This document shows, piece by piece, positions 12,241 through 62,943 of a DNA stretch of 64,000 bases. The notes beneath the pieces were generated by a model. That model saw only the letters and a list, made by a program, of their open reading frames with translations, searched no databases and was not told the DNA's origin. Position numbers and translations under genes: made by a program. The stretch is from Polyangiales bacterium (GTDB lineage Bacteria; Myxococcota_A; Polyangia; Polyangiales; Ga0077539), in assembly GCA_044229975.1 (NCBI GenBank), contig JBGARZ010000007.1, positions 160,001 through 224,000 of the forward strand, written 5' to 3'. Positions within the stretch are counted from its first letter, which is position 1; each line of letters begins with the position of its first letter.

Positions 12241-12515
12241 TGGAGGTTCGCGAAGTGGGCCGGGGTTCACGGTGCAGGCTCCGCGTCCGTCGCGCTCCGT
12301 TCACCCCGGTCAATGGTAGGGGGTCACCCCGCCGCTGCGCGACGGGGTTGCAGGATCGGATTCATTCGAGATCCGTTGTTGAAGTCGTCGAGAGACCTCT
12401 CTTGCAACCCCGTCGCGCAGCGGCGGGGTGACCCCTACCATTGACCGGGGTGAACGGAGCGCGACGGACGCGAAGCCTGCACCGTGAACCCCGGCCCCCA
12501 CGTCGCGAACGTCCA
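12241..12515. repeat. Long inverted-repeat element (family A), arms about 112 bp, spacer about 50 nt
   Basis: 12241-12352 is the near-perfect reverse complement of 12403-12515; lies between convergent genes. Confidence 0.9.
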
Positions 12516-12555
12516 TGGGGCAGATCGGTATGAGGCGCCGCGCCGTCGGCGCCGA

Positions 12556-13653
12556 TCACTCCCCCAGCCAGCGGCTCGCGATGGCGGCGATGGTGCCGTC
12601 CTGGCGCAGCGACAGGAGCGCGACGTCGATGGGCACGCGCAGGCTGCTGCCGTGGCGCACCGAGAAGCCGTACCCGAGCGGCTCGTACGACGCTTCGGAG
12701 ATGGTGAGCTGGAGGTCGGGGCGTTGGTTGAGCAGGTGCCGCAGCGCGGGCCGATCGAACACCACCGCGACGACCTCGCGGCGCACCAGCGAGCGCACCG
12801 CCCCGTCGAGCGTGCGGAACTCCACGGCCGTCCCGCCGTGGTGGCGCACGAAGAGCGGCGAGGTGGTTCCGCCGACGGTCGCGACGCGGCGGCCGCGCAG
12901 GTCGCCCGAGGTGAGGATGGACGCCGGGTCGAGCTGCGAGAGCGTGAGCGCGGTGGTGAGCGACGCCGTGAGCGACGACGTGATGACCAGCGCGGAGAGC
13001 ATCCACACGCCCGCGATGAGGCGCCCCGCCGGAGTGACGGGCGCGCGGTCGCCGTAGCCCACGGTGGTCATCGTCACGAGCGCGAGCCACACGCCGTTGG
13101 CCACACCCGGCCCCGCCGCCGTCGGAAACTGCGCCCCGTTGCGCCGCCGCTCCGCGAGCCAGAGCAGCACGCCCACCAGCAGCACCGCCAGGGTGATGGA
13201 CGCCGCGCCCAGCGCGAAGGTGCGCGAGAGAAACGGCCGGATGCGGTCGGAGTACCGCCGCTCGGCCGGCGCGAGGATGGCGAGGCTCGCGTCCTGGTAG
13301 GGCTGGCTGAAGGCCACGCGCTGCGCGCGCTCGGCGGTGATGCTGGTGGGTCCGACCCCGACGTCGACCTCGCCTGCGGCGACCAGCCGGAGGAGCTGCT
13401 CGGTGCTGTCCACGCGGCGAAACTCGTAGGTCCAGTGGTTGCGCGAGGCGACGTCGCGCCACACGTCGACGCTGAGGCCGTTGGGCTCCGCTCCTTCCAC
13501 ATCGGGCGCCACCACGAAGGGCGCCGACCCCGCGACGCCGACGCGTATCGGGTGCGCGGCGGGTTCTGGCGGCGTGATCGGTTGTGCGATCGCGGCCCGC
13601 GACGCGAGCGCCAACGCCGCGATGGAAAGCCAGCGGGTGATCGGGTTGGCCAT
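12556..13653 (-). CDS. Ligand-gated K+ channel, GluR0-like (periplasmic binding domain split by a pore domain)
   Basis: Signal peptide; ITAERAQRVAFSQPY SBP motif; TMTTVGYGD K+ selectivity filter. Confidence 0.88.
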   Translation of the reverse strand: MANPITRWLSIAALALASRAAIAQPITPPEPAAHPIRVGVAGSAPFVVAPDVEGAEPNGLSVDVWRDVASRNHWTYEFRRVDSTEQLLRLVAAGEVDVGVGPTSITAERAQRVAFSQPYQDASLAILAPAERRYSDRIRPFLSRTFALGAASITLAVLLVGVLLWLAERRRNGAQFPTAAGPGVANGVWLALVTMTTVGYGDRAPVTPAGRLIAGVWMLSALVITSSLTASLTTALTLSQLDPASILTSGDLRGRRVATVGGTTSPLFVRHHGGTAVEFRTLDGAVRSLVRREVVAVVFDRPALRHLLNQRPDLQLTISEASYEPLGYGFSVRHGSSLRVPIDVALLSLRQDGTIAAIASRWLGE

Positions 13654-13906
13654 GGAGGGTCGCGACTCTATCGCGGGGCGTTCAGGTGATCCCGAAACCG
13701 GCGGCGTGGCGGGTCGAGGGTCGCCCCATCGACTGCCCCGCTGAACGCACCGGCGGTCGAATGGTCGCAGCGCTCTTCTGCCTCGCGTCCGTCATGCACG
13801 CGCGGGCGGTGCGGTCGACCTTTCTCCATTACCGCGAGGAGTTCACGCCGTGAACGGAGGGCGCGCTTCAGAGCGCGGGTACAGGCGATTGGTTGCAGTG
13901 CTGACG

Positions 13907-14121
13907 TTCGGAGAAGACGGTGTTGGGAGGCAGAAGCCGCAAGGGCGCGAGGGTCGCAAGGACCGGGGTTTCATGAGGAGTGGAGACGAGCGCCGTGTGC
14001 GTGAGGGCGGTGCTTTGAAAGACTGCGGGCCCATACGTCCGCTCTTCTGAAACTCCGATCCTTGCGACCCTCGCGCCCTTGCGGCTTCTGCCTCCCAACG
14101 CCGCCAACGCCAGCTCCGAAC
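13907..14121. repeat. Inverted-repeat element (family B)
   Basis: gttgggaggcagaagccgcaagggcgcgagggtcgcaagga... (13922-13973) pairs with 14048-14099; related to 33881-34020. Confidence 0.85.
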
Positions 14122-14198
14122 ATCCGGTCGCATTGACGCGCGCTTGACGCGAGCGCTGGGTTCATGGCGCTTCGTCGGTCACCAAGGAGGGAGCGCAG

Positions 14199-14426
14199 AT
14201 GTTCGATTTCTTTCGCCGCCGCAAGGCCAACGGTCTGCTGGAGCGAGCCAGGGAGGCGCAGCGCAAGGGGGAGCGCGAGGAGGCGGCGCGACTCTTCGAA
14301 GAGGTGATCGCGCTCGGCACGGACCTGGCCGGTACCGCGGCCGCTACGCTCGCGGCGATGGCGCACGAGCGCGGGGACCACGCGAAGACCTGTCGTCACC
14401 TGGAGAGAGCACGCAGGGCGTGCTGA
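14199..14426 (+). CDS. Small TPR-like protein (possibly truncated)
   Basis: AGGAGG RBS upstream; A...G..EEAARLFEEVIAL TPR pattern. Confidence 0.55.
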   Translation: MFDFFRRRKANGLLERAREAQRKGEREEAARLFEEVIALGTDLAGTAAATLAAMAHERGDHAKTCRHLERARRAC

Positions 14427-14571
14427 TGCCCGAGGAGGGGGTGCTCGCGCTGCAACTCGGCGACGGAGGGCGCGCTCCAGATCGCGGGTACGTGCGACTA
14501 CGTCGTGGACTGATCGCTCGTCGACCGAGGGAGCGCCGCCCGGCGTCGAGCGTGGTAGTGCGGAGCCCACG

Positions 14572-15600
14572 ATGATCTCCATCGAACCGGCGTTCGACGT
14601 CCAGTTGGAGCATGGCGCGTACCTCCTCGCGGCCTCGGCCTCGGGTCACGTCGCCGCCCTCGACTCGAACGGAAAGGGCACCCTCCTCGGGTCGGATGGG
14701 GCGGTTTGCGCGCGGTTCCAACTCTGCGCGCGAGCGATGGGCCTGGCGCTCTCGACGCAGGGCGAGTGGATCGCGGCGTCCAACGAGGACGGGTTGCGCG
14801 TGGTTCGCGCGACCGGCGAGGAGGTGTGGCGAGCGTCTGGCTCGACGCAGGGCGTGGTGTTCACGCGCGGCGATTCGCTGCTGTGGAGCGTGGTCGTCGT
14901 GTCGCCATCCCTGGGCCGCGTGCAGGTCCGCGACGTCGCGACGTCCCAGGTCGTCAGCGAGGTCGAGGTGCCAGACCCCTTCGAACACTCGGTGTGGGTG
15001 CTGCTGAACCGTCCGGCAGACGACGGCGTCGTGCTCTGCTGCGTGTGGCCTCACGGAGGGCGCGCGCTCTTCCACCTGTCGCTCGACGGCGGGGCCGTTC
15101 GCGTGGCGCAGATTCCCGGGCACGACACGGCGACGGAGCCCCGCTTCGACGCCACGGGATCGCGCTTCCTCGACGTCGGGAACGACCGGGTCCGGCACCG
15201 CGAGTTTCCGGGCGGCGCCGTGTTGGGAGAGCTGTACTGGACCCCCGACACCGACTGGGTCGGGGACTACGTCTGCTACGCCACGGCGGAGCACGCGGTG
15301 GTCGTCTCCGGTGGGGGGCATCTGCACCTGCTCCGGTTGCGCGAGATGACGCTCGTCGACGAGCTCGTGCTGAGTGGCCACGAGCCGCAGCTCCTGAGCG
15401 CCCTCTACGATCAGCTGACGGGGAAGGATGCGCTGTGTGGAGACGCCGGCTACGTGCAGTTGCATCCCGCGGGTGGCCTCGTGTCGGCGCATCGTCATCT
15501 CGGGCGCTCGCTGAGCGATCCGGCGAAGTCGCGCGTGCTCCGGTGGCGCCTTCCTGCGGAACTCGATCCGACCGCGGCGGCGGCCCGCGCTCTCCCGTAG
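14572..15600 (+). CDS. Hypothetical beta-strand-rich (propeller-like) protein
   Basis: Long ORF with normal codon pattern; repeated short strands (LALSTQGEWIAA, PRFDATGSRFL). Confidence 0.6.
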   Translation: MISIEPAFDVQLEHGAYLLAASASGHVAALDSNGKGTLLGSDGAVCARFQLCARAMGLALSTQGEWIAASNEDGLRVVRATGEEVWRASGSTQGVVFTRGDSLLWSVVVVSPSLGRVQVRDVATSQVVSEVEVPDPFEHSVWVLLNRPADDGVVLCCVWPHGGRALFHLSLDGGAVRVAQIPGHDTATEPRFDATGSRFLDVGNDRVRHREFPGGAVLGELYWTPDTDWVGDYVCYATAEHAVVVSGGGHLHLLRLREMTLVDELVLSGHEPQLLSALYDQLTGKDALCGDAGYVQLHPAGGLVSAHRHLGRSLSDPAKSRVLRWRLPAELDPTAAAARALP

Positions 15601-15639
15601 ATCGGGTCGCCACACTCCCACGTGATGCGCGTCGGCGCG

Positions 15640-15980
15640 CGAGGGAGGCGGTCGGACCGCGAGCGCCCACTGCGCGGTTGCGGACGGCCCGTGGGCGGGC
15701 CTGCAACCGCTGAAGTGGGAGGCTGGAGCTGGGCGTCCCGCCGTCGCGGGACTTGCTGGCGGAGCGCCGAGCGCGCTGCGCTCGACGAGTGGAGGTAGAG
15801 GCTCGCCGAACGGCTTGGAGAGGAACGTCTTCACCCTCTCGACGGTCGCTCCAGCGACCGGCGCTCCGACAGGAAGTCCCGCGACGGCGGGACGCCCAGC
15901 TCCAGGTCCCGACTTCAGCGCGAGCAGGGCCACAGGCCCGTCCGCGAGCGCGCAGTCGGCGGCCTCCGATCGACCGCTCT
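15640..15980. repeat. Imperfect long inverted-repeat element
   Basis: Perfect 32-bp core 15723-15754 / 15874-15905 with imperfect pairing extending outward and inward. Confidence 0.75.
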
Positions 15981-16171
15981 CACGTACGTTGATGCACAAC
16001 CCGTGGGCACTGAACCCACCGAGGTCGAACCGTCGCAGCTCGCGCCTGGGTGGTCGATGCCCGTCGCTTCGCGACGGTTGAGGAGCGTCGGGCTGACCTG
16101 AGCGGGCGCTGAGCTCGCACATCCCTCTCGACACACCGATGGGGTCCCGCCGATACTCTCTCCCGCATGTG

Positions 16172-17032: not shown

Positions 17033-17079
17033 GAGTACCGTGCAGCAGCCTCAGGCCTTCAACCAGTGAGCGACACGCG

Positions 17080-19551: not shown

Positions 19552-19554
19552 CTC

Positions 19555-20811: not shown

Positions 20812-20821
20812 GGCAACCTTC

Positions 20822-24645: not shown

Positions 24646-25788
24646 ATGGACGCCACCACGCTGCGGTCTCGCATCACCGGGTCGCTCGACGGATTGTTTC
24701 TCGGCGACGCGCTCGGGTGCCCGGTGGAGATGAAGACCCCGGCGGAGATTCGCGCGAAGTACGGCGAGCTGAAGACCCTGGAGGACACGCCCCGCCCGTG
24801 GTGGCGACCCGCGGGATTGCACTCCGACGACAGCCAGCAGGCGATGGCCGTGTGCGACGCGCTCCTCGAAGCGCCGTCGGCGCCCGAAGGTCCCTTCGCG
24901 CGGATGCTGGTGGAGGTGTATCGGGCGTTCAAGGGAGGCCGCGGGCAGCACGGTGGTCACCGCGGGACGGGGAAGAATTTCCGCGAGACCGTGGACAAGC
25001 TCGTCGCGGGCGAGGCGAGCGATCCCTTCGCGGGCGCGCAGCCGACGGCGGGCAACGGCGTGGCGATGCTGGCGGCGCCCATCGCGTGGCGCTTTCCCAC
25101 GGAGCCCGATCGGAGGCTCGCCGCGCTGCTCTCCATCGCGCGCGTGAAGACCACCGACCCACGAGCGGTGGGCGCGGGCGCGGCCGTGGTCGAAGCCGTC
25201 GCCTGGGGCATCGAGCACGGAACGCTCCGCACCCTCGACCACACCCGCTGGATCGACGCGACCGCGCGGGCCGAGCGCGAGGCGGCCAGGGCGTGGGCGG
25301 TGGACGGCCCGACGACGCACGCGTTTTCACGCGCGCTGACGGCGATGCTGGCGCGGCTGCCGTGTCCGCGGGCGGAGATGCTGTCGGCCATCGAGGCGGT
25401 GGCCCTGGCGACGAGCGATCGCCCGGTGGGCCCGAGCGGCGGCTACGCGCTGGGCTCGGTGGTGACGTCGCTGTACCTGGCGCTCGACGCCGCGACGCTG
25501 GAGCGCGCGCTCATCGACGCGGTGAACCTGGGCGACGACGCCGACACGGTGGGCGCGATGGTGGGCGCGGTGCGCGGCGCGGCCGATGGGGCGAGCGCGG
25601 TGCCGCGGCGGTGGCGCGAGGGCCTGTGGGCGAAGGGGGCGTTCAACGACCGGGTCGAGGCGCTGGTGGCCGGGTGGTCGAGCGGATGGAGCGGGCCGGA
25701 GGGCGGGTGGCGGCCGCAGGAGTCGCTCGCGGACAGCGAAGGGCGCTGGTCGAAGATGGCCGACCGGGCGCGCGAGTCGGCGGGGTAG
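24646..25788 (+). CDS. ADP-ribosylglycohydrolase family protein
   Basis: GDALGCPVE, SDDSQ, GNGVAM and GDDADTVGAMVGA motifs. Confidence 0.9.
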   Translation: MDATTLRSRITGSLDGLFLGDALGCPVEMKTPAEIRAKYGELKTLEDTPRPWWRPAGLHSDDSQQAMAVCDALLEAPSAPEGPFARMLVEVYRAFKGGRGQHGGHRGTGKNFRETVDKLVAGEASDPFAGAQPTAGNGVAMLAAPIAWRFPTEPDRRLAALLSIARVKTTDPRAVGAGAAVVEAVAWGIEHGTLRTLDHTRWIDATARAEREAARAWAVDGPTTHAFSRALTAMLARLPCPRAEMLSAIEAVALATSDRPVGPSGGYALGSVVTSLYLALDAATLERALIDAVNLGDDADTVGAMVGAVRGAADGASAVPRRWREGLWAKGAFNDRVEALVAGWSSGWSGPEGGWRPQESLADSEGRWSKMADRARESAG

Positions 25789-25823
25789 AGGCGAGCGTTC
25801 ATTCAAGCGGGCGGTGATCTCGT

Positions 25824-26101
25824 CCGGTGGTCGCCGGAGTTCGCGTGCCTCCATGAGCCGGGGTGCAGTCGCTCACTCCGGGCTATTTCACGTCGTCACC
25901 CCGCGGCGCGGGGTTGCAGGGCCAGAGGCGTTTCCGCTGCCACGCGCTCACTCGACGGACCCATCGCAGACGCGAAGACGAACAGATTCTCCGCGAGCGG
26001 ATTCTCTGCAACCCCGCGCCGCGGGGTGACGACGTGAAATAGCCCGGAGTGAGCGACTGCACCCCGGCTCATGGAGGCACGCGAACTCCGGCGACCACCG
26101 G
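25824..26101. repeat. Long inverted-repeat element (family A), perfect 96-bp arms, 86-nt spacer
   Basis: 25824-25919 is the exact reverse complement of 26006-26101; lies between convergent genes. Confidence 0.95.
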
Positions 26102-26110: not shown

Positions 26111-27370
26111 TCAGAGCCCCGCGGAGGCCATCGCGTCGACGATCGCCTGGCCGTCGCGCAGCCGCCCGCCGCGCTCGCGGCGCATCATCGCGGCGATGAG
26201 GTCTTCGAGTGCCTCGGGCACGTCGGCCCGCACGTCGCGCACCCGCGGGGTGTCTTCCAGCATCAGCCGCGCGATGGTCGCCATCGGCGTCGCGCCGTGG
26301 AAGGGCGACACGCCCGCGAGGCACTCGTAGGCCACGCAGCCCGCCGCGAACACGTCGCAGCGCGCGTCGGGCGTGAAGCCCTCCTTCACCTGCTCGGGGG
26401 CGAGGTAGCCCGGCGTCCCCAGCAGCATCCCGCTCTGGGTCAGCGGCGCGCTGTCGTGGTCGCGCGCCAGACCGAAGTCGATGAGCACCATCGCGTCGAC
26501 GTCGCCGCCCACCAGAAACAGGTTGGCCGGCTTCACGTCGCGGTGAACCATCCCCGCGTGGTGCACGTGCGCCAGCGCCTCGCCGACGTGACGAATCAGC
26601 CGCGTCACCTCCTCCACCGGCAGCGGGCCGCGGGTGAGGCGGCGCGCGAGGTCTTCCCCCTCCAGCCAGTCCATCACCAGGAAGTGGAAGCCTTCGCCCA
26701 CCTCGCCGTGCGCTCGGTACGGAACCACCCGCGGATGCGTGATGCTCGCCAGCGTCTGGCACTCCCGCGCGAAGCGCTCGGTCGACGTGGGTGAGCGCGG
26801 CACCAGCTTCACCGCCACCGACTGCCCCGTCTGCTCGTCCTTCCCCGCGTACACGGAGCCCATGCCGCCTTCGGCCACGCGGCGCTCCAGCAGGTAGCGC
26901 CCCGCGACGACCGTGCGCCCGGATCCCACGGCGAGCGGGAGCAGCAGCGTCGGGTTGGTGCCGCTCGTGGAGGGCTGTGTCGGGCGCTCGGAGTGGCGGT
27001 GCAGCCGCGCGCGAACCGTGTCGATGAGCTCCTCCGCCGTGAAGGGCTTCACGAGGTAGTCGTCGGCGCCGAGGTTCATCCCGCGGCGCACGTCCTTGCG
27101 GTCGGCCCCGCCGCTCAGCAGCACGAAGGGGATGCCCTTGGTCGAGGGCAGCGTGCGGAGCTGCGTCAGGGTGTCGTGCCCGTCCATCTCGGGCATCCGC
27201 ACGTCGCACAGGATGATCGCCGGCAAGAGGTCGGTGGCCAGCGCGACGCCCACCCGACCGTTCTCCGCGGGGAAGACCTCGAAGCCGTCGGACTCCAGCG
27301 CGAGGCACATCATCGCCCGGAAATCCGGGTCGTCCTCGATCACCAGCACTCGCGGCGAAGACTCCTGCAT
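26111..27370 (-). CDS. Receiver domain-Ser/Thr kinase fusion
   Basis: VLVIEDD, CDVRMP and KPF followed by EGGMGSVY, HRDVKPAN, DFG and APE motifs. Confidence 0.9.
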   Translation of the reverse strand: MQESSPRVLVIEDDPDFRAMMCLALESDGFEVFPAENGRVGVALATDLLPAIILCDVRMPEMDGHDTLTQLRTLPSTKGIPFVLLSGGADRKDVRRGMNLGADDYLVKPFTAEELIDTVRARLHRHSERPTQPSTSGTNPTLLLPLAVGSGRTVVAGRYLLERRVAEGGMGSVYAGKDEQTGQSVAVKLVPRSPTSTERFARECQTLASITHPRVVPYRAHGEVGEGFHFLVMDWLEGEDLARRLTRGPLPVEEVTRLIRHVGEALAHVHHAGMVHRDVKPANLFLVGGDVDAMVLIDFGLARDHDSAPLTQSGMLLGTPGYLAPEQVKEGFTPDARCDVFAAGCVAYECLAGVSPFHGATPMATIARLMLEDTPRVRDVRADVPEALEDLIAAMMRRERGGRLRDGQAIVDAMASAGL

Positions 27371-27439
27371 GGTCGTGTTGTGGGCTTGCACCCGTCTCTG
27401 CTCCTCCGCGGCATCAAACACTGCCGGACTCCTGAGCGG

Positions 27440-37039: not shown

Positions 37040-38002
37040 ATGAACATCTACCAGAAGACCTCGTTGGCGTTCGCGGTTGCCTCGATGACCCTCGGCCTCG
37101 CCGGTGTCGCAGAGGCGCAGCCGTTTGCGGTGCCCGGCGACACGGCGGGCTGCGAGTCGGCCAACGGGCCCTTCGCGTGGAGCTGCTACCGCGCCATCCC
37201 GGGCATGGCGTGCACGCAGATTCGCGAAGACGCCGACCCCCACACCTGGGGCGACAACTACTTCTGCTCGGCGCAGCCGCTGGGCATCCGCTGGTCATCC
37301 GCGGGGCCCGTCGCCGGGATGCGCTGCACCCAGATCACCGAAGGCGCCGACCCCAACACCTGGAACGACAACTTCCTCTGCGTCCCGCCGACGTCTCCGC
37401 TGGTGTTCTCGTGGAGCAGCGCGGGACCCGTCCCCGGCCTCCAGTGCGTCCAGTGGAATGAGCCCGCCGACCCCCACACCTGGCAGGACAACTACCTCTG
37501 CTGGCAGGGCGGCCAGCGCTTCGGGCGCCCCGTCTTCGCCGCGCCTCCGCCTGTCTTCGTCGCCCCGCCGCAACCCCCCGTGGTGGTGCAGCCCGCGCCC
37601 GTCTCGTGCGAGTCGGCCAACGGCCCCTTCGCGTGGAGCTGCTCGCGTCCGCTCCCCGGCATGGCATGCACGCAGATCACCGAAGGCGCCGACCCCAACA
37701 CCTGGAACGACAACTACTTCTGCTCGGCGCAGCCGATGGGCATCCGCTGGTCGTCCGCGGGGCCCATTCCAGGGATGCGTTGCACCCAGATCACGGAAGG
37801 GGCCGACCCTCACACCTGGAATGACAACTTCCTGTGCGTCCCGCCGATGGCGCCGGTGCAGTTCCAGTGGAGCAGCGCCGGTCCCATCGCGGGCCTCTCA
37901 TGCGTCCAATGGAACGAACCGTCGGACCCCCACACGTGGCAGGACAACTTCCTCTGCTGGGGCGGTGGTCGCGGTCGTCGTATGGGCCCGCGCTTCTACT
38001 GA
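37040..38002 (+). CDS. Secreted protein with six Trp/Cys-rich ~38-aa repeats
   Basis: Signal peptide; WSSAGP.PG..C.Q..E..DPHTW.DN..C repeated as two triplets joined by a Pro-rich linker. Confidence 0.85.
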   Translation: MNIYQKTSLAFAVASMTLGLAGVAEAQPFAVPGDTAGCESANGPFAWSCYRAIPGMACTQIREDADPHTWGDNYFCSAQPLGIRWSSAGPVAGMRCTQITEGADPNTWNDNFLCVPPTSPLVFSWSSAGPVPGLQCVQWNEPADPHTWQDNYLCWQGGQRFGRPVFAAPPPVFVAPPQPPVVVQPAPVSCESANGPFAWSCSRPLPGMACTQITEGADPNTWNDNYFCSAQPMGIRWSSAGPIPGMRCTQITEGADPHTWNDNFLCVPPMAPVQFQWSSAGPIAGLSCVQWNEPSDPHTWQDNFLCWGGGRGRRMGPRFY

Positions 38003-38024
38003 CCGCCGCGCATCGTCGCAGACA

Positions 38025-39185
38025 TCACCCCGCGACGGACTTCGACACCTCCAGCGCGCCGCTCCCGTAGCCCCACTTCAGCAGCGCCTTCAGCTCCGGC
38101 CGACGGTAGAGCCCGCTCGCCACCAGCGCCTGCATCGCGTCCTGGATGCGCCCGCGCACCGCCGCCGGAGCATCCACCTCGCGCGCCACCCGCCACCGAT
38201 ACCGCCGCACCGCCTCGTCATCGAGCGCGCCCGCCTTCAACGCCGCGGCGCACACCTCGCCCGCGATCTCGCCTGTCCGCAGCGCCTGCCAGATGCCCTC
38301 ACCCGTCAGCGGATCAACGTGCCGCCCGGCATCGCCCGTCGTCAGCATCCCGGGCATCCCCACCCGCACGCCGACGTCGCTCAAGGGGAGCTGCCACGTG
38401 CGCACCGAGCCCACCCGCTTCGCCCCCGCGAAGCGGTCGCGGTGCTGCTCCATGAAGGCATCGAAGAGCGCCGCGAGCGACAGCTTGCGGGCGTCGTAGC
38501 CGTCGCGCCGCAGGTACACGCCCACGTTGGAGACGCCCTCCACCGCGGGGAAGATCCAGCCGTACCCGTACGGCAACCCCGGGTCGAACCAGTGCTCGCT
38601 CCAGCCTTCACGCAGTGCCCCCGTGACGCCCTCGAAGTACGCCGTCGCCGAGATGGCCAGACCCCGCCCGCGCGGCTTCTCCACCCCGAGCGCCCGCGTC
38701 GCGACCGAGCCCGGTCCGTCGGCCGCCAGCACCGCTCGCGCCCGCACCACTTCGCCGCCGATGCGCGCGCCCACCACGGCGCCGCCCTCCACCACGAGGT
38801 CGTCCGCCGCCACGGCCTCGGTGACCTCCGCGCCAGCGTTCACGAGCGCTCGCACCAGCAGCGCGTCGAGGTCGAGCCGACCGACGATCATCCCGCGCGC
38901 GTCGCCGTAGTCCCGCGGGATGCTCCCGCCATCGGGCAGCAGCGCGAGCGCTCCCAGTACGTCGGTGTGCGGGGCCGCGCGCAGGGCGTCGCCCGCGCCG
39001 AGCGACCCGATGATGGCGATGGCCTTGTTGGAGAGCGCGTCGCCGCACACCTTCGGCCGCGGAAAGGTTGCCCGGTCGATGACCCGCACGTCGAGCCCGG
39101 CCCGCGCGGCCACCACCCCCGCGGCGCACCCCGAGGGGCCCGCGCCGATCACCAGGACGTCGACGGTCTTCATGGTTCCGCTCAT
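38025..39185 (-). CDS. Geranylgeranyl reductase family FAD-dependent oxidoreductase
   Basis: IGAGPSG, FPRPKVCGD, GYGWIFP and GDAGRHVDPLTGEGI motifs. Confidence 0.9.
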   Translation of the reverse strand: MSGTMKTVDVLVIGAGPSGCAAGVVAARAGLDVRVIDRATFPRPKVCGDALSNKAIAIIGSLGAGDALRAAPHTDVLGALALLPDGGSIPRDYGDARGMIVGRLDLDALLVRALVNAGAEVTEAVAADDLVVEGGAVVGARIGGEVVRARAVLAADGPGSVATRALGVEKPRGRGLAISATAYFEGVTGALREGWSEHWFDPGLPYGYGWIFPAVEGVSNVGVYLRRDGYDARKLSLAALFDAFMEQHRDRFAGAKRVGSVRTWQLPLSDVGVRVGMPGMLTTGDAGRHVDPLTGEGIWQALRTGEIAGEVCAAALKAGALDDEAVRRYRWRVAREVDAPAAVRGRIQDAMQALVASGLYRRPELKALLKWGYGSGALEVSKSVAG

Positions 39186-39242
39186 CGCACGCTGCGAGGG
39201 ATCGGCACAATCGCGCCGCGATCTGCGACACTCCCGCGCGCC

Positions 39243-40961
39243 ATGCGTACCCGCGCCCCGCTCCTCCTGCTCGCCGTCACCGCCCCGCTCGCCTGCGGCG
39301 ACGATCGCCCCTCTTCCGTGGTCCTCGTCGACGCCGGAACCGACGCTTCACCCGATGTTCCGGTCGTCGATGTTCCCGTCGACGTGCCCGTCACGCCGGG
39401 CGCCGCTCGCGTCATCGTCGAGCACTATGACTACGACCTCGACGTCGCCGCCCGCCGCGGCCGCGCCAGCCTGCGCCTCCGCGTCACCGCCGCGGGCGAC
39501 TGCGTGTCCCTCCCGTTTCGTCCCACGGCGGCCGACGACGTGACCCTCGACGGCGCCCCGGCTCGCGACGTCATGGTCGCCGGCGGCCGCCTCGTCGCGT
39601 GCGACCCTACCGGTCAGGGCTACGCCGTCGGGAGCACCGTCACCCTCGCCGCGGGCTCCTCGCTCATGGGAACCGCCACGCTCCGCAACACCCAGGTCGG
39701 CTTCAGCTCCCGCGTCGACTCCGCGGGCGGAAACTTCACCTACCTCCTCTCGTGGGTCGGCCAGTGCGACCGCTTCGGGGCCTGCGACAACGACCCGGGG
39801 GTGTTCGCCACCTACCACTTCAACGTCACGCACGCGGCCAACCAGCGGGTCTTCTGCCCCGGAACCATCACCCCCACCGAGACGCGCACCGAGTGCGACT
39901 TCCGCTTCGAGGGCGGCCCGACGTACAGCACCTTCGGCGTGATGATCGGCCAGCGCTGGCTCGACCACCCGCTCGGCCGCGCCGCCAACGTCGACCTCAT
40001 CCTCTATGACCTCCTGGACACCGGCGTCACCGCGGCCCTCGACGCGACCCGGGTGCAGGGGATGGTGTCGTTCATGAGCGAGCGCTTCGGGCGCTACCCC
40101 TACGGCAACACCCTGCGCTTCGTGGTGGCTCCGACGACCTGGGCGGGCTTCGAGCACCCCGGCAACATCGCCCTCGCGCAGACCCTCGCCAACGGCAACG
40201 CCGAGCACACCGTCTTCCACGAGATCGCCCACCAGTGGGCCGGCGACCAGACCACCATCGCCTCGGTGCGCGACTTCGTCTGGAAGGAGGCCATGGCCGA
40301 GTACCTGAGCTTCGTCTACGAGTCGACGCGCCTCGGCGACGCGCGGGGCATCACCACCGCGCGCATCTGGAAGGACTCCGCCCGCTCGCTCACCAACCAC
40401 CCGGTGCCGCGCGCGGAGGTGCCCATCAACGAGTTCTATGGGTCGGCGTACGGGCCGGGCCCGATGGTGCTCTTCCGGCAGTTGGAGGTTCGCTACTCCC
40501 GCGACGCCGTCATGGGCGCCCTCACCGACCTCCTCGGCCGACCCCGCGCGATCTCCCTCGACGACGTTCGACGCGCCCTCGAAGCGCGCACCTCGGCCAA
40601 CCTCGCGGCCTACTTCACCGGCTGGCTCGTGGGCGACGGCGCGCCTGTCTGGCCGACCGCGCGCGTCACCCGCAACACCGTCGCCGACGGCCCCGTCACC
40701 ATCACCGTCGACCCGCACGGAACGGGTCGCGGGATGATGTTCGTCGTGCGCGTCGAGGGTGCTGCGGGCGAGCGGCTCGATGTCCCCGTCGACCTCGGCA
40801 TTGACGGCGCAGGGTCGCCGACGGTCACCGCACGGCCGGGCTTCGTGGTCACCCGCGTCACCGTCGACCCCGACGCGCAGGCCCTGGTCTACGCGGACAA
40901 CACCGCGAGTGGAGCGCCCGCGGCGAGCGCCCCGCCGGTGCGTCCGTGGCTCGCGCCGTGA
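39243..40961 (+). CDS. M1 family zinc aminopeptidase lipoprotein
   Basis: PLAC lipobox; AGFEH, HEIAHQW and WKEAMAEY motifs. Confidence 0.88.
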   Translation: MRTRAPLLLLAVTAPLACGDDRPSSVVLVDAGTDASPDVPVVDVPVDVPVTPGAARVIVEHYDYDLDVAARRGRASLRLRVTAAGDCVSLPFRPTAADDVTLDGAPARDVMVAGGRLVACDPTGQGYAVGSTVTLAAGSSLMGTATLRNTQVGFSSRVDSAGGNFTYLLSWVGQCDRFGACDNDPGVFATYHFNVTHAANQRVFCPGTITPTETRTECDFRFEGGPTYSTFGVMIGQRWLDHPLGRAANVDLILYDLLDTGVTAALDATRVQGMVSFMSERFGRYPYGNTLRFVVAPTTWAGFEHPGNIALAQTLANGNAEHTVFHEIAHQWAGDQTTIASVRDFVWKEAMAEYLSFVYESTRLGDARGITTARIWKDSARSLTNHPVPRAEVPINEFYGSAYGPGPMVLFRQLEVRYSRDAVMGALTDLLGRPRAISLDDVRRALEARTSANLAAYFTGWLVGDGAPVWPTARVTRNTVADGPVTITVDPHGTGRGMMFVVRVEGAAGERLDVPVDLGIDGAGSPTVTARPGFVVTRVTVDPDAQALVYADNTASGAPAASAPPVRPWLAP

Positions 40962-42368: not shown

Positions 42369-42369
42369 G

Positions 42370-42649
42370 ATCACCGCTCGACGGAATGCGCTCGCGCCGG
42401 GAGGTGAGCGCCCGGAGCGCACCGCTCAAGCCCGCGGTCGAGTCCCGTAGCCCCACGAGACCCGATGAGTCGTTTGGACCGGTGACTGCGGGCCTGAGCG
42501 TTGCGCGCCGCGCTGACGCCGCGGCGTGGGCCCCGGTGACTGCGGGCCTGACCGGTGCGCGCCGCGCTGACGCTGCGGCGTGGGCCCCGGTGACTGCGGG
42601 CGCGGTCGTCGCTCGCCCGATGTCCAGCACCGACAACCCGAGGGGTGTC
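42370..42649. repeat. Family C repeat element (partial): central core plus 54-bp tandem units
   Basis: Units start at 42481, 42535 and 42589; core gagtcccgtagcc..cgagacc.gatgagtcgtt.ggaccgg is shared with 44458-44883. Confidence 0.85.
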
Positions 42650-42831
42650 GCTGGAGTCGGCCATCCTGGCCGACGGGACCGGAGTGGAGTTCTTGTGGAG
42701 GGAGCGTGCGACGCGGGTGTACCGCCGACACGAGAGCTGGTGGTCGCGCGATTGCCTCGATGACTGGGACAACTGCGTGGCGGAAGGGGTGGGTCGACGA
42801 GCGCGATCGATCGTCGCCATGAAGCGAGCGC

Positions 42832-43236: not shown

Positions 43237-44457
43237 ATGGCGACCCGATTGAAGGTTCCGTTCGCGCTGCACCCCGCGCTGAACCTGCGCAGCAACATCA
43301 CCATCGCCGACGGAAGCGAGGCGGTGCTGAGCCCCGATGGCACCACGGCAGGGGTGATCCGCGGCGGGTACGGTCAGAGCTGCCTCGAACTCCACACGCT
43401 GGCCACCGGGGCCGTCGAGGTTGTTCTGCCCGCGCAATCCGCGCACGGCATCGAGCACCTGGTCTGGTCACGCGACGGTCGCCGGTGGGCCGTCGGGCAG
43501 CTCCGCTTCGAGGGCAACGACCGCAACGGGATGGTCTTCATCGGCGAGCGCGGTCGCGCCGACCTGCTCTCGGTGGCTCGCACCGCGGCGTACGGTGGGG
43601 TGACGCTCAACGCCCAGGCGCGACCGTCGCCGCTGCTCGCGTTTTCACCGGACGCTGAGCGGGTGGTGCTGCGGGTGTGCGGCGACGACCGCAACGCGCT
43701 CATGCACATCGCCGCGGCGACCGGCGCCGTGCGCGAGCAGTGGCTCGACCCCTCGGAGCAGGACGTCTTCGCCCACGCCTTCGCCGACGACGGAACGCTC
43801 TACACCGCCTGTGCGTGGGCGGGCGACACCGCTGGCCTCGCGTGGTACCCGCCGGGCGCCGCGGGCCCGGCCGGGCGGCTCGCGTGGCCCCACGGGCTGG
43901 TCATCGTCCCGACGGGTCGCGGGCTGTGGACGCTGGGCAACCCGAGCTGTTGCTTTCGCGTGGCGCCGGGCCCTGCGATGCCCGTTGTTGCGGCGGTGCC
44001 CTCGCGGCGCGAGCGAGTCGAAGCACTCCGCGCGCGCGCCTCCACCCGGTGGGACCAGGAGTATCTGGATCAGGTTCTCCAGCGGCTCACGGAAGGGCCA
44101 CCGACGCTGGACTACCACCCGTCGCGCAACGAGGTGCAGGGAGGCGCCGAGCTCCCGCGGCAGAGCGGCTTCCGCGTGCTGGAGCACGAGCTGTCGTGGG
44201 AGACGTCGTTCGCGTCGCGCCTCGGCGACGATGACCTCGTGGTGTCGGACGGCGTGGGCGTGTGGCGGTGGCATGACGACGGCGCTTCGCTCGCCCGCGA
44301 GCTGCTGGTCGACGACACGCAGCGATGCACCCACCGGGCGCCGCGCATCATCGGGATCTCGACCGCCGGCGACACGCTCGCGCTGCTCTGGAAGCAGGAC
44401 GCGCGCGGCGCGAAGACCGTGCTCTCGCTCTTCGACGTCGCCCGCGCGGCGACCTGA
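43237..44457 (+). CDS. Hypothetical beta-propeller-like protein
   Basis: LSPDG, VWSRDG, FSPDA and FADDG blade-type motifs. Confidence 0.65.
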   Translation: MATRLKVPFALHPALNLRSNITIADGSEAVLSPDGTTAGVIRGGYGQSCLELHTLATGAVEVVLPAQSAHGIEHLVWSRDGRRWAVGQLRFEGNDRNGMVFIGERGRADLLSVARTAAYGGVTLNAQARPSPLLAFSPDAERVVLRVCGDDRNALMHIAAATGAVREQWLDPSEQDVFAHAFADDGTLYTACAWAGDTAGLAWYPPGAAGPAGRLAWPHGLVIVPTGRGLWTLGNPSCCFRVAPGPAMPVVAAVPSRRERVEALRARASTRWDQEYLDQVLQRLTEGPPTLDYHPSRNEVQGGAELPRQSGFRVLEHELSWETSFASRLGDDDLVVSDGVGVWRWHDDGASLARELLVDDTQRCTHRAPRIIGISTAGDTLALLWKQDARGAKTVLSLFDVARAAT

Positions 44458-44883
44458 GACACCCGTCGGGCGATGGGTGCTCGACATCGGGCGCGCACCG
44501 GTCGGGCCCGCAGTCGTCGGGCCCACGCCGCAGCGTCAGCGCGGCGCGCACCGGTCAGGCCGCAGCCACCGGGGCTCGCGCCGCGGCGTCAGCGCGGCGC
44601 GCACCGGTCAGGCCCGCAGTCGTCGGGCCCACGCCGCAGCGTCAGTGCGGCGCGCAACGGTCAGGCCCGCAGTCGAGTCCCGTAGCCTTGCGAGACCGGA
44701 TGAGTCGTTCGGACCGGGGCTGCGGGCCTGACCGGTGCGCGCCGCGCTGACGCCGCGGCGTGGGCGCCGGTGGCTGCATGCCTGACCGTTGCGCGCCGCG
44801 CTGACGCCGCGGCGTGGGCGCCGGTGGCTGCTGGCCTGACCGATGCGCGCCCGATGTCGAGCACCCATCGCCCGACGGGTGTC
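44458..44883. repeat. Family C MITE-like element: 40-bp terminal inverted repeats enclosing inverted arrays of ~53-bp units
   Basis: 44458-44497 pairs with 44844-44883; units at 44491, 44544, 44597 and 44650, then inverted units after the core. Confidence 0.9.
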
Positions 44884-51285: not shown

Positions 51286-51374
51286 TCGGCTCGCGAGAGC
51301 AGGAGTGTCGGCAGGGCGGCTGCTCTTGTTCAAGCGGTTGGCGAGGTTGGCGGTGCCCTGCGGAGGACGCCGAG

Positions 51375-51680
51375 TTCTCCTCCGCTTCCAACGTAGGGCA
51401 GCTCGCCGCGTCCACGCCGGAGTTCACCGTGCTGCCCTCGCGCTCGTCACGCTCGGTTCACTCCGGGCTATTTCACGAGGATCGCCCCGCCTGAAGCGGG
51501 GCTCAGAAGTACCTTGTGGAGGCATTCAGTTGGATGAAAGCGCTTGGACGGAGCCCCGCTTCAGGCGGGGTGATCCTCGTGAAATAGCCCGGAGTGAACC
51601 GGGCGCGACGGGCGCGGGGGCGGCACGGTGAACTCCGGCGTGGACGCGGCGAGCTGCCCTACGTTGGAAGCGGAGGAGAA
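51375..51680. repeat. Long inverted-repeat element (family A), 130-bp arms, 46-nt spacer
   Basis: 51375-51504 pairs with 51551-51680 with a few transitions. Confidence 0.95.
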
Positions 51681-51811
51681 ATCGGTGTCCTGACGATGCT
51701 CTGGACCGTCGGCTCCGCGGCCGCTCAATCCATGCGCCACAGCTCCTCGTTGATGCGTCGGTCGTACTCGTCGCCGCTCGCTTCGGCCGCGAGCCTACCG
51801 CACCCGCCGCG

Positions 51812-58099: not shown

Positions 58100-58190
58100 C
58101 GTCGCGCAGCGTACCAGCGGACGGCAGAGCAGGTGATCGGCGCGACGGACGGGCTTGCGCGTGAGCGCGGCATCGGGCTGAAGTGCGACG

Positions 58191-58883: not shown

Positions 58884-58895
58884 GGACTCGTGCCG

Positions 58896-59046
58896 TTTCG
58901 ACGTGTCCGAGGTGACCTTGCGAGGAACCGGCGACCGTGAGGGCGCCGGAATCCAAGGGCCCGTGGTGCGTCGCAGTCTCCTCGGAGGGATTCCGGCGCC
59001 CTCACGGTCGCCGGTTCCTCGCAAGGTCACCTCGGACACGTCGAAA
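58896..59046. repeat. Inverted-repeat element (family D), perfect 59-bp arms, 33-nt spacer
   Basis: 58896-58954 pairs with 58988-59046; flanked by direct repeat gtagggactc at 58880 and 59057. Confidence 0.95.
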
Positions 59047-59158
59047 GGGCTGCTTTGTAGGGACTCACCCCTCGTCGGGGTCTGAGGTTCGGAGCAGGCG
59101 TCGGCGGCGTGGGCTGGGACGGTCATGTCGTCGGTCCCTTGTGGGGACCAACGACGAG

Positions 59159-59196
59159 CACCTCGCGTCGCCACGACGCCTACTCCGAATCCCAGG
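59159..59196. repeat. 38-bp dispersed direct repeat (second copy 62543-62580)
   Basis: cacctcgcgtcgccacgacgcctactccgaatcccagg is identical at both sites. Confidence 0.9.
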
Positions 59197-59199
59197 TCG

Positions 59200-60066
59200 G
59201 GGTGCTCACGGTTGCACTCTCGCGCGTAGATCTGGAAGGCCGCGACGAAGAGCGCGAGGGCGAGCGGGCCGAGGATGATGCCCCAGCCGCCGAAGGCTTC
59301 GAGGCCGCCGAAGATGCCGAGGAAGAGCAGCAGCGGGTGCACCTTCGCCGCGCCCATGCGCGCGAAGAACGGTCGCAGGATGTTGTCGATGCTGCCGATG
59401 ACGACCACGCCGACGACCCCGAGGATGATCGCCTCCTTCGTGCGTCCGGCGAGCCCGAGCAGCAGCGCGAGCGGCGCCCAGACGAGCGAGCTGCCCACGG
59501 TCGGGATGAGCGACGCGACGACGGTGAGCACGCCCAGCAGCAGCGCGCTCGGAAGACCGAGGATGACACTCGGTGAGCGATCCGCCGGCCGACATGAGGC
59601 GGTGGGTGATGCCCGTGGTGGCGCCTCCTCCTCCGCCGCTTCCGGGAGCGGGGTGGTCTCCTTGCAGCGATCGGACGAGCTGTTGGATGGCGGCCTCGGG
59701 GCGCCCCCGGCTGGCCGCCCGACCGAACTCCACCGCGATGCCTACGATGGGGACCGCGAGCAGCACCATCGGGGCGACGATGACGACGACGAGGAGGGCG
59801 GTGGCCACGGCGGCGACGTGGTGACGATCGCCGATGCGCTTCGCGACGCGGGCGCGCAGGTCGGCCGTGAGCCCGGCGAACCACGCGGCCACCACGATGG
59901 GCGCGAGGAACTTCAGCACGGTGAGGGTGGCCAACGCGCCGAGGGCGATCACGAAGACGGCGAGCGCGCGAAACTGCTCGCTCGTGGCGCCGCTGGTGGG
60001 CGTGGCCGGGGCGTCGGGGTTGGACATGGTGCGAGACACATGGAGCCCGAGCGCGGGATTGGACAT
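59200..60066 (-). pseudogene. AI-2E family transporter, internally deleted and frameshifted, stop codon lost
   Basis: N-half ends at GGSLT near 59570; another frame gives IPTVGSSLVWAP...IDNILRP...HPLLLFLGIFGGL...GIILGP; the middle helices are missing. Confidence 0.75.
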
Positions 60067-60107
60067 CGCTCCACCGATGCGCGCGTGCGCGGTTACACTC
60101 GCGGTCG

Positions 60108-60737
60108 ATGACCAGTCACCCCGACGACGAGCTCAAGGGCAGCGAGGTTCGCCTCTGGAACCTCATCGAACAACGCGCCCGCCCCGGCGCCGACACCGCG
60201 CGCATCGACCAGCGCATCTGGGACCTCTTCGGCGAGGAGTGGGCCGTGATGTTCACCGACCTCGCGGGCTTCTCCCGCCAGGTCGCCGCCTTCGGCATCA
60301 TCCATTTCCTCCAGGAGATCTTCGAGCAGAAGCGCCTCCTGCTGCCCATCGTCGCCGCCCGCGACGGCATCCTCGTGAAGGTCGAGGCCGACAGCTTCCT
60401 CATCCTCTTCAAGCGCGCCGCGAGCGCCGTGCGCTGCGCCGTCGAGATGCAGCACGCCTGTCAGCGCTTCAACGAGCAGCGCCCCCCGGAGTCGCAGGTG
60501 CTCCTCTGCGTGGGCGTCGGGTACGGGCGCATCCTCCGCATCGGCGACGTCGACGTCTTCGGCGCCGAGGTCAACGCGGCCAGCAAGCTCGGCGAAGACA
60601 TCGCGAAGGCCAACGAGGTGCTCGTCACCCAGGCCGCCCGCGACGCGGCGGGCGAGGCGCCGGGGCTGTCGTTCAGCAGCATCGACACGGAGGTGCCGGG
60701 GACCACGCAGTCGTGGCGGCTCCACTACCCGCGCTGA
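60108..60737 (+). CDS. Class III adenylate/guanylate cyclase
   Basis: FTDLAGFS, KVEADS and DVFGAEVNAASKL motifs. Confidence 0.88.
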   Translation: MTSHPDDELKGSEVRLWNLIEQRARPGADTARIDQRIWDLFGEEWAVMFTDLAGFSRQVAAFGIIHFLQEIFEQKRLLLPIVAARDGILVKVEADSFLILFKRAASAVRCAVEMQHACQRFNEQRPPESQVLLCVGVGYGRILRIGDVDVFGAEVNAASKLGEDIAKANEVLVTQAARDAAGEAPGLSFSSIDTEVPGTTQSWRLHYPR

Positions 60738-60749
60738 TGCGAGGGGGGT

Positions 60750-61685
60750 CTACAGCCCGCCGTAGTCGACGCCCGTGGCCTTGACCGAGATCGCCCACAG
60801 GCGTCGTGCGAGGTCGGGGTTGCGGGCGGCGCGTGACGCCTTCGAGCGCACCGGCGGGCCCGACGTCTCGGTGATTCCGCCGGGGCCGATGTAGTCGCCG
60901 CCGCGCGCCTCGGGCGAGGTCGCGGCGAAGAGCGTCGGCCAGGCGCCCACGGCGGACGGCTGCGCGAGGAAGCGGTTCATGAAGGCCGCGACTCCTTCGC
61001 TGTACCCGAACGCGCCGCCCGCGGCGGCGGAGGTTCCCTGGAGGTTGGTGGCGGCGTAGCCGGGGTGACAGGTGAGGGCGTGAAAGCCGAGGCCCGCGGC
61101 GGTGGCGCGGCGGTCGAGCTCGTTGGCGAAGAGAACGTTGGCCAGCTTGGTCTGCCCATAGACCAGCCACGGGTTGAGCCGCTTGCCTTCCATCATCGCC
61201 TCGAAGCGGTCGCCGCCGACGTGGTGCATGCCGCTGCTCACGTTGACGACGCGCGCCGACCCGGTCGACTTGAGGACGTCGAGCAGGAGCCCGGTGAGGG
61301 CGAAGTGACCGAGGTGGTTGGTCGCCATCTGGATGTCGAAGCCGTCTTCGGTGAGCGACGGCGGCAGCGCCATCACGCCGGCGTTGTTGCAGAGCACGTC
61401 GAGGCGCGAGTGCTTCGCGCGAAAGGCTTCTGCGAAGGCGCGCACGCTGGCGAGCCGCGACACGTCGAGCGCCATCACCTCGACCGAGGCGCTCGGGGTC
61501 TCGGCGCGCACGAGGGACTCCGCGTCGGTCGCCTTGGCGGGGTTGCGGCACGCGAGGACGACGTGGGCGCCCTTCGCGGCGAACATGCGCGCGGCTTCGA
61601 GTCCGATGCCCGAGTTGGCGCCGGTGATGACGACGACGTGGCCGGTCTGGTCGGGAATCTGCGCGGTGGTCCACGGGGAGGTCAT
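60750..61685 (-). CDS. Short-chain dehydrogenase/reductase (retinol-DH-like)
   Basis: TGANSGIG, NNAGVM, NHLGHF and YGQTK motifs. Confidence 0.93.
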   Translation of the reverse strand: MTSPWTTAQIPDQTGHVVVITGANSGIGLEAARMFAAKGAHVVLACRNPAKATDAESLVRAETPSASVEVMALDVSRLASVRAFAEAFRAKHSRLDVLCNNAGVMALPPSLTEDGFDIQMATNHLGHFALTGLLLDVLKSTGSARVVNVSSGMHHVGGDRFEAMMEGKRLNPWLVYGQTKLANVLFANELDRRATAAGLGFHALTCHPGYAATNLQGTSAAAGGAFGYSEGVAAFMNRFLAQPSAVGAWPTLFAATSPEARGGDYIGPGGITETSGPPVRSKASRAARNPDLARRLWAISVKATGVDYGGL

Positions 61686-61747
61686 GGAGGCGGGTTCTAC
61701 GCGCGGAGGTCGCGCGGGCGCAACGGGCGGGGGTACCGTCGCGGGCG

Positions 61748-62230
61748 ATGCCCATCACGCCCCTGCACTTCGGCGCGGCGCTTCCCTTCGAGCTCGCGCT
61801 CCGCGGGCGCTTCTCGACGGTCGCCTTCGTGCTCGCCAACGTCGTGATGGACGTTCAGCCGGTGCTGGCGCTCGGGTTCGGCGTGCCCGTCGCGGTGCAC
61901 GGGTGGACCCACTCGCTGCTCGGCGCGTCGCTCATCGCCGCCGCGCTCACGCTGCTCGCGTGGTGGCTCCCGCGACGCTTCGCCTACGCCGCGGGCTTCT
62001 TCGCCGGGACGCTCACGCACGTCGCGCTCGACAGCCTGATGCACCACGACCTGTGGCCGCTGTGGCCGTGGCGCGAGGGCAACCCCGTCATCGAGCGCGT
62101 CGACGTCGACATCAGCTTCGTGATGATCGCGCCGAGCACGCTGTGGGTGCTCGTGGTGATGTGGCGGGTGCACCGTGACCAGCTCGCCAACCCCGATCGC
62201 CGGTGGCGCGATCGACTGCTGGCGATGTGA
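61748..62230 (+). CDS. DUF4184 / metal-dependent hydrolase-like membrane protein
   Basis: MPITPLH, HGWTHS and THVALDSLMH motifs. Confidence 0.7.
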   Translation: MPITPLHFGAALPFELALRGRFSTVAFVLANVVMDVQPVLALGFGVPVAVHGWTHSLLGASLIAAALTLLAWWLPRRFAYAAGFFAGTLTHVALDSLMHHDLWPLWPWREGNPVIERVDVDISFVMIAPSTLWVLVVMWRVHRDQLANPDRRWRDRLLAM

Positions 62231-62700
62231 CGACGGATCAGCCGAAGTCGCGCTCGCCCGGCACCACCACGGGCTCGCCCGCGATCGCCCGCGCCGCCTG
62301 CCGCCCAGTCCCGCGACGCCGCTGTTGCCCATCGGCGCGCTCGCACCACCGCGCGCCAGCGCTCGGACGCTGCCGACATCTCCGCGGTCACGGCCGGGAC
62401 CGCGCCCGATCACCTTGTGAGGACGAGCGCCGCGCACGGGCTCAGCGGAGTCGAAGCGTCGCGCCCAATCCCTCGCCCTGTTCAGCACCCATCGAGGCGT
62501 ATCACCAGTGGCGCGGACGGGTCGAGTGGGGCCCACGACAACCACCTCGCGTCGCCACGACGCCTACTCCGAATCCCAGGCGCTCTCCCAGGTCGCTGGA
62601 TCAGACCCGCGCCCGCGTCCGGCTCATCTCGTTGCTGGGTTGGGTTCCCCATGCGGTCGTGTCCCAAGTTGAAGCCAAGTGTCCCAAGTTGAGAACCCGC

Positions 62701-62943
62701 GTCGCTCACGCCGGAGTTCACCGTGCCGTCCTCGCGCTCACCGCGTCCGGTTCACTCCACGGCTATTTCACGCGGATCGCCCCGCTTGAAGCGGGGCTCC
62801 GTGGCTCGTCATGCGATGATTGGTGGCCCACGATCGGATTCACGGAGCCCCGCTTCGAGCGGGGCGATCCGCGTGAAATAGCCGTGGAGTGAACCGGACG
62901 CGGTGAGCGCGAGGACGGTACGGTGAACTCCGGCATGAGCGAC
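62701..62943. repeat. Long inverted-repeat element (family A), 103-bp arms, 37-nt spacer
   Basis: 62701-62803 pairs with 62841-62943; closely related to 51375-51680. Confidence 0.95.

Follow-up and report, generated by a model that had tools for sequence, protein, structure and literature searches.

The 64,000-nucleotide stretch analysed here (the window; G000:C33:160001-224000) belongs to a Polyangiales bacterium assembly (G000) of 10.0 Mb, 71% GC, 39 contigs and 93% completeness, and it carries four very large palindromes, at 12, 25.8, 51 and 62.7 kb, of a family termed A. Position numbers without a contig prefix are window coordinates, and C plus a number denotes a contig of G000. Based on sequence comparisons, we propose, with a probability of about 75%, that these palindromes are gene-less doublets of the ends of an IS200-like tnpA gene for a Y1 transposase of the HUH type. 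They would be spread in trans by that enzyme on single-stranded DNA, with their arms matched by template switching or recombination, and one subfamily (A3) and the long copies of another (A1) would also travel as cargo of MITEs (transposable elements of miniature size with inverted repeats).

The genome contains four Y1_Tnp matches, two of them between family A arms and two between repeats of other families. Both genes enclosed by family A arms are intact (Table 1); their proteins are 57–58% identical, and the ends flanking tnpA are inverted copies of ~100 nt that are 91–93% complementary. That two tnpA genes are flanked by the same arms bears out the suggestion, made in a preliminary description of the window, of a non-autonomous family that resembles REPINs (doublets of repetitive extragenic palindromic, REP, sequences) and is linked with a Y1 transposase of the HUH type. 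The partner does not score as a REP-associated tyrosine transposase (RAYT), named there alongside an IS200-like tnpA: as judged by NCBIfam, the C34 protein scores as IS200 (NF033573, 59.1 bits; cut-off 55) and falls below the RAYT cut-off (NF047646, 30 bits; cut-off 80), and both proteins carry the DHVH, WQ and YxxxQxxHH motifs that form the signature of TnpA-Y1 subclass 1.2. The best PDB matches are IS200/IS605-type transposases (E ~1e-3).

The association of gene and inverted repeat extends well beyond this genome. Among the best 80 of 501 homologous loci from GTDB genomes, 77 have enough flank, and an inverted repeat (score at least 20) spans the gene in 56 of the 77, from many phyla, against 0 of 72 control windows. 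YxxxQxxHH is present in 72/77, and an (A/T/C)AGC-plus-hairpin word lies upstream in 51/73 homologues against 15/73 controls. In the family, 13 genomes have a close tnpA (best E<1e-39), and 10 of these contain at least 14 arm matches to a covariance model, compared with 1 of the 18 genomes lacking such a gene, the model having been built with arms from six of the scanned family genomes and counts of 136 meaning at least 136; tnpA-positive genomes outside model building reach at least 14 arms in 4 of 7 cases.

A scan of G000 for local inverted repeats yielded 183 long elements, and a profile made from 65 family A arms returned 155 arm matches, comprising 74 pairs (inverted, within 700 nt) and seven unpaired matches. 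Four of the latter represent two pairs interrupted by an insertion sequence (IS), in one case an IS that we take to be IS66-like; two stand at the ends of contigs, and the last is a partial match. So many arm matches are far beyond chance. Cores were parsed for 72 pairs (two were dropped). Two of the 72 contain tnpA, and the other 70 are gene-less elements (13 A1, 37 A2 and 20 A3) in three subfamilies that are 66–70% alike; a single element overlaps a called gene. Within an element the arms are on average 97.5% identical and perfect in 27/72 cores, and the partner arm is nearer than any other element's arm in 51/72, with eight ties.

Spacer lengths are almost constant per subfamily (A1 52–58, most A2 55–57 and A3 43–49 nt, as delimited for this comparison), and 61 of 70 spacers have a partner in the family that is at least 70% identical, against 0/70 after shuffling; for 4/70 the partner is identical. 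Since spacers are related across the family, they are inherited with the arms and not captured. The preliminary description had called the central spacers unrelated, which is true among the four in the window but not genome-wide, although two of the four, at 25.9 and 51.5 kb, stay under the 70% threshold (65% and 64%). It had also considered the capture of spacer DNA; a spacer-acquiring system, with foreign or host DNA taken up between the arms, is an explanation that the mutually unrelated window spacers and the nearly fixed lengths might favour and that is nevertheless largely refuted and, in our estimate, extremely improbable. Besides the family relatives of 61/70 spacers, comparison with the rest of the genome gave just five weak matches (E 0.006–0.007) away from arms, and searches with two whole elements gave chance matches, with nothing significant for the 25.8-kb element among phages or for the 51.4-kb element and an empty shell (see below) among plasmids. 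Folding of the four window spacers is no better than that of shuffles (z -0.5 to 0.8). High spacer diversity has already been described for SBW25 REPINs (PMC3337134; this and all other papers are cited from the portions available to us).

Convergent genes flank 34 of the 50 A1 and A2 copies, against 18% of all gene gaps (1422 of 7842), and just 4 of the 20 A3 copies. The convergent gene pair around the 25.8-kb element is conserved in congeners, six of which lack an element there: their two flanking genes nearly abut, as opposed to a 322-nt gap here. Empty sites were not identified for the 12-kb and 62.7-kb copies in the five congeners compared, where synteny is not conserved. IS200-type peel-and-paste movement is expected to leave no flanking direct repeats, and, as expected for it, A2 shows no excess of such repeats; no target duplication was found at the 25.8-kb element. 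The elements are unevenly distributed over the genome: of the 183 long elements with inverted repeats, 19.7 would be expected on C38 (1.08 Mb), yet this contig is a repeat desert that has none (P ~3e-9), and C38, C32 and C11 together hold two family A elements where 21 are expected. The gene dnaA and two tnpA genes reside on the element-rich C23, and the element distribution suggests an origin-proximal bias.

A different mode of movement is suggested by the sequences outside the A3 and long A1 cores. A3 cores have asymmetric outer ends, X (56 nt) and Y (~67 nt), with related termini. Among the 10 of 20 A3 copies with both termini called, at least seven of the eight flanking bases match in six, against 29/20000 in the null; each duplication has a different sequence, and that of the 62.7-kb copy is perfect. 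An empty 101-bp X+Y shell without a palindrome is found at C32:914522. Long A1 copies have symmetric ends that begin with TACCGAT and a 3-bp TNA duplication in four of the six called, including the 12.2-kb copy, which is bordered by TGA at 12223-12225 and 12531-12533. Locus-specific target duplications imply a staggered-cut, DDE-type enzyme, and such an enzyme is therefore implied at the A3 and A1 shells. With bacterial MITEs moved by DDE transposases, to which end and duplication type would assign them, the shells have in common that their inverted termini are short and that the target duplication differs from locus to locus (8 bp for A3, TNA for long A1), but here Y1-type palindrome cargo makes up the bulk of the element.

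No parent of the shells was identified. An IS256 or IS6-type gene was not found in this genome, and the matches to DDE_Tnp_1, DDE_5, ISL3 and DDE_3 that were considered as shell parent lack shell ends. Searches with exact or near-exact shell-end motifs revealed no IS among 14 metagenome matches or in genomes of the family (30) and of the order (300); an end-motif match 2 kb from the tnpA of genome G001 is unconnected to that gene. Given the shell ends with their 8-bp (A3) and 3-bp (A1) duplications, and the 9-bp direct repeat that borders one tnpA unit in genome G002, one might regard the whole family as ordinary DDE-transposase MITEs, with tnpA as no more than a passenger inserted between the arms. 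We consider this unlikely, because A2, the largest class (37/70), lacks the direct-repeat excess, the link between tnpA and inverted repeats recurs in 56/77 homologues from many phyla, a shell exists without a palindrome, and the DDE parent was missing from the genomes searched.

A single-copy, immobile transposase gene is a feature of REPIN/RAYT systems. G002 has three tnpA copies that are 96–99% identical and located at different sites, genome G011 has two at 97%, and G001 and genome G007 have tnpA at one common locus. The duplications in G002 and G011 may be shell-driven. At locus L033 (G002:C165), the inverted match around tnpA continues for ~220 nt in sequence that resembles flank, after which comes a direct copy, ~30 nt long, of the left flank. 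The arrangement looks as though host DNA had been carried across the element by replication.

Several observations bear on why the two arms of an element match. Of the variants private to one element, 35 are present in both arms and 66 in a single arm; for variants common to several elements the corresponding counts are 314 and 87, in keeping with the earlier idea that arms are homogenised within elements. Independent mutation would produce almost no private variants in both arms, which therefore point to arm-to-arm copying. Symmetry extends outward by at least 8 nt past the core in 62% of comparisons within elements against 10% between elements for A1, and in 35% against 7% for A2. The 51-kb copy has Y sequence on both sides, the right Y replacing the usual X end and likely having arisen through arm-to-arm copying. 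Spacers are also inverted: relative to the X/Y shell, 16 assignable A3 copies are divided nine to seven between the two orientations (five to three and four to four by spacer type), with four unassignable. The 62.7-kb copy and its counterpart at C34:413919 (C34:413979) are near-identical and have the same 37-nt spacer in opposite orientation relative to the shell, with an inner-hairpin difference inverted along with it. Polymerase template switching between inverted repeats is described to give both arm homogenisation and spacer inversion (PMC8604942). The spacer flips and the private mutations in both arms therefore argue for template switching or recombination between the arms, the likely cause of arm matching, and not for selection on an RNA stem; RecA-type recombination between arms could give the same pattern.

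It is very improbable that the palindromes or their perfection are fold-back or bulge-collapse artefacts of assembly. Several contigs, family A copies included, end inside repeats, which suggests a short-read assembly, and among the sequencing-run contigs (shares up to 0.21) no piece spans an element. An artefact is nevertheless at odds with the small number of perfect cores, the target duplications, the doublets in separately assembled genomes, the private variants carried by both arms of imperfect elements (18 of the 35) and a spacer flip anchored by arm differences ~30-60 nt apart.

Each arm is an enlarged two-hairpin unit, in which 8 of 14 predicted base pairs show double-sided (compensatory) changes across lineages; one of four single arms in the window folds clearly better than shuffles. 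The layout of hairpin, GGCTA(T/A)TT linker and hairpin is shared with the Acido-Lenti-1 motif (Rfam RF01687), listed in Weinberg et al. 2010 (PMC2864571), from which family A arms differ by a first hairpin enlarged by ~35 nt. They remain below the threshold of the Acido-Lenti-1 covariance model (37 bits), which has no match in the window. RF01687 matches directly adjoin two of 20 scanned tnpA homologue loci and lie near a third, and the flanks of loci L141 and L145 match. At gathering score no Rfam family has a match in the window; the sole E-value match, MIR918, was dismissed as a generic long hairpin (score 79.6; threshold 268). The available text of the literature naming Acido-Lenti-1 gives it no function or transposase link.

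With their strong enrichment (A1 and A2) between convergent genes, an arm resembling Acido-Lenti-1 and hairpins that covary, the elements might instead be kept as functional RNA, that is, as bidirectional terminators or stabilisers or as Acido-Lenti-1-like small RNAs, with pairing selection holding the arms identical. We rate this as quite unlikely. Spacer flips are not what selection for RNA pairing would bring about, and no G-U bias exists: across the 70 elements, 37 transitions are G-U compatible on the top strand and 40 are not. Selection for double-stranded RNA based on G-U pairs is not supported. The mismatches of the 51-kb copy, previously taken to be mostly G-U-compatible C/T changes, were counted as four T/C, two G/A, one A/G and one G/T. 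In addition, the 25.8-kb site is empty in congeners, the spacer flips and the overwritten shell end fit events at the DNA level, and covariation is equally expected of single-stranded DNA hairpins.

Based on these observations, we envisage that TnpA would recognise the arm hairpins as single-stranded DNA, act in trans on gene-less doublets and copy them to new intergenic sites without target duplication, giving the bulk of A2. A3 and long A1 copies would have lodged in, or acquired, ends belonging to a miniature element of the cut-and-paste (DDE) type, and the shell-bearing copies would then have spread as its cargo, with duplications of 8 bp or 3 bp left behind. The arm match would be upheld during replication by template switching or by recombination from arm to arm. 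The most fitting view of the family is that of selfish DNA, tolerated in the gaps between the 3′ ends of genes, with a possible secondary effect on transcripts.

Several points weigh against this proposal. The co-occurrence of tnpA and arms is one among kin, hence not independent; genome G032 has tnpA and no arm matches. None of the tnpA genes identified in the 93%-complete assembly has arms of the A3 type, and an autonomous DDE element with shell ends was not found in this genome or up to 300 others searched. A derivation of the spacers from the tnpA interior was not apparent (best E 4e-4 for 1/70; profiles not significant), the exact ends of short A2 copies are not mappable, and the gene contexts rest on codon-model gene calls made in this analysis.

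In the window, a covariance model built partly from the arms of the four palindromes recovers exactly these eight arms. Observations of the preliminary description are partly confirmed and its interpretation is partly supported. The common arm layout, the ggctatttcacg motif in three of the four elements and the position of three of the four, the 12.2-kb element included, between convergent genes all hold. The limits given for the elements needed widening at 51 kb, where the arms are longer than reported, and at 12 kb, where the arms align across ~135 nt with three gap positions (Table 1). Strong divergence between elements does not apply to the 51-kb and 62.7-kb copies, which belong to one subfamily and are 82–85% alike over matched stretches. 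The MITE-like shells and the spacer flipping had been overlooked. The left outer extension of the 25.8-kb copy is possibly a decayed IS-end shell.

Table 1. Family A features in the window and related loci of G000
Feature	Position	Strand	Description
A1-type element	12226..12530	none	Palindrome core with symmetric ~35-nt outer ends starting TACCGAT
Left arm, A1 type	12257..12352	+	Outer hairpin, linker, inner hairpin; arm type that of tnpA at C23:54383-55140
Right arm, A1 type	12403..12497	-	
Gene	24646-25788	+	ADP-ribosylglycohydrolase
Convergent partner gene	26111-27421	-	Receiver-domain/Ser-Thr kinase fusion
Left outer extension	25799..25823	+	Common to four other long A2 copies
A2-type doublet	25824..26101	none	Perfect 96-nt arms 25824-25919 / 26006-26101; 86-nt spacer; arm type that of tnpA at C34:47318-47915
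Shell end Y, left side	51350..51416	+	
A3-type doublet	51364..51691	none	141-nt arms 51364-51504 / 51551-51691, 8 mismatches; 46-nt spacer 51505-51550
Left copy of 8-bp target-site duplication	62647..62654	+	CCCCATGC
346-bp composite	62655..63000	none	MITE-like shell enclosing A3 doublet, with ends X (62655-62710) and Y (62934-63000), whose termini resemble GGTRGTGTCC
A3 doublet	62695..62949	none	109-nt arms 62695-62803 / 62841-62949; 37-nt spacer
Right copy of 8-bp target-site duplication	63001..63008	+	CCCCATGC
tnpA, A2 arms	C34:47318-47915		146 aa, intact
tnpA, A1 arms	C23:54383-55140		150 aa, intact
IS-interrupted family A element	C23:501283-503080		
IS-interrupted family A element	C39:198512-200982		

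Just left of the 51-kb element, at 51320-51349, is a sequence like the outer end of long A2 copies, which suggests nested insertions at one spot. The window also contains other repeats. A second palindrome family, at 15697-15931, has 13 elements by motif, and its arms flank the third Y1 tnpA at C23:67402-68128. Tandem ~53-nt units form inverted clusters at 42413-42660 and 44453-44883 (12 elements by motif) and also bracket a divergent Y1 gene with class-3-like motifs at C26:71082-71276. For a third palindrome family, of the GCAAGG type, at 13918-14103 (24 elements by motif), no cognate transposase was identified. A palindrome at 58892-59050, with 63-nt arms that are 98% complementary and a 33-nt spacer, carries no family assignment. 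Among the genes, 12556-13653 (-) combines SBP_bac_3 with Lig_chan/Ion_trans_2 domains, as in a prokaryotic glutamate-receptor-like channel, and the frame 37104-40961 (+) encodes 1285 aa with six ~38-aa repeats near the start and a weak Peptidase_M1 match at the end.

Compared with known systems, family A works like a REPIN/TIRtron system and is filed neither as REPIN/RAYT nor as classical IS200. The REPIN/RAYT systems of Pseudomonas and E. coli likewise consist of gene-less intergenic inverted doublets, whose spacers vary, and of a Y1 HUH gene that has the repeat of the doublets on its flanks, but REPIN arms measure ~25 nt, whereas those of family A measure ~90-140 nt and have two hairpins. 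In alignments, TAGC/TTGC or TGCA is seen beside the arm hairpins, and the REPIN-type GT[AG]G tetranucleotide at the hairpin foot is absent. The REPIN partner is a class-2 TnpA-REP (YxxxNP; group 2/3 RAYT), in contrast to the YxxxQxxHH motif and IS200-type score found here, and only group 2 and 3 RAYTs are described to have REPINs (Bertels & Rainey PMC3116915, PMC3337134; bioRxiv 10.1101/2021.07.10.451892). Family A is thus not filed with REPIN/RAYT because it has no GTAG and its partner is not of class 2.

In architecture, family A is closest to the TIRtrons of Di Nocera with their dimers of terminal inverted repeats (TIRs). As here, a tyrosine transposase gene (TIRYT) is flanked by long TIRs, some of them self-complementary, and the TIRs also occur dispersed as dimers (Di Nocera et al. 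2013, PMC3733652), and TIRtron-like GGGGWSAS-type words (PMC3733652) occur in the A1 and A2 arms. The TIRYT protein is RAYT-like and of class 2, the 26 described TIRYTs having been placed in subclasses 2.1, 2.2 and 2.5 by Quentin et al. (PMC6006769), whereas the protein here has the class 1.2 signature; the available text on TIRtrons contains no description of MITE-like shells or spacer flips (PMC3733652). With subclass 1.2 the present enzymes share DH[IV]H, WQ and YxxxQxxHH, a length of 146–150 aa (~148) and few, divergent copies of low intragenomic identity. For that subclass the REP entry reads "no", and terminal structures are generally absent (Quentin et al. 2018, PMC6006769), unlike the homologues here, 56/77 of which are flanked by inverted repeats. 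The IS200 family cut-off is exceeded, as in IS200/IS605 subclass 1.1, but the small, distinct left and right subterminal hairpins and the near-identical multicopy genes of IS200/IS605 are not seen. The portion of the literature covered by our search reports neither subclass-1.2 doublets, nor Y1 palindromes nested in MITE shells, nor REPIN spacer flipping.

More tentatively, and with the odds somewhat against it, these comparisons may hint that a REPIN-like system arose a second time, independently, on the IS200 branch of Y1 transposases; it would be widespread across phyla, with an enzyme not yet fully domesticated. Its palindromes would repeatedly join cut-and-paste IS ends, and arm-to-arm copying past the core would duplicate a single IS end and so create new MITEs, a second route of spread for the palindrome and, in one relative, for tnpA.

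Family A bears on how REP/REPIN doublets replicate and why their arms match; in the literature available to us, REPINs are tied to two RAYT groups only. It lends itself to tests of these questions on the IS200 side, as the enzyme is named, a single genome holds two cognate arm types, and the arms are long and variable enough to record their history. Its asymmetric shell serves as an orientation marker that exposes spacer flips and separates template switching at replication from selection at the RNA level. Finally, the reading of Acido-Lenti-1, an RNA of "unknown function", as a DNA repeat gains support.

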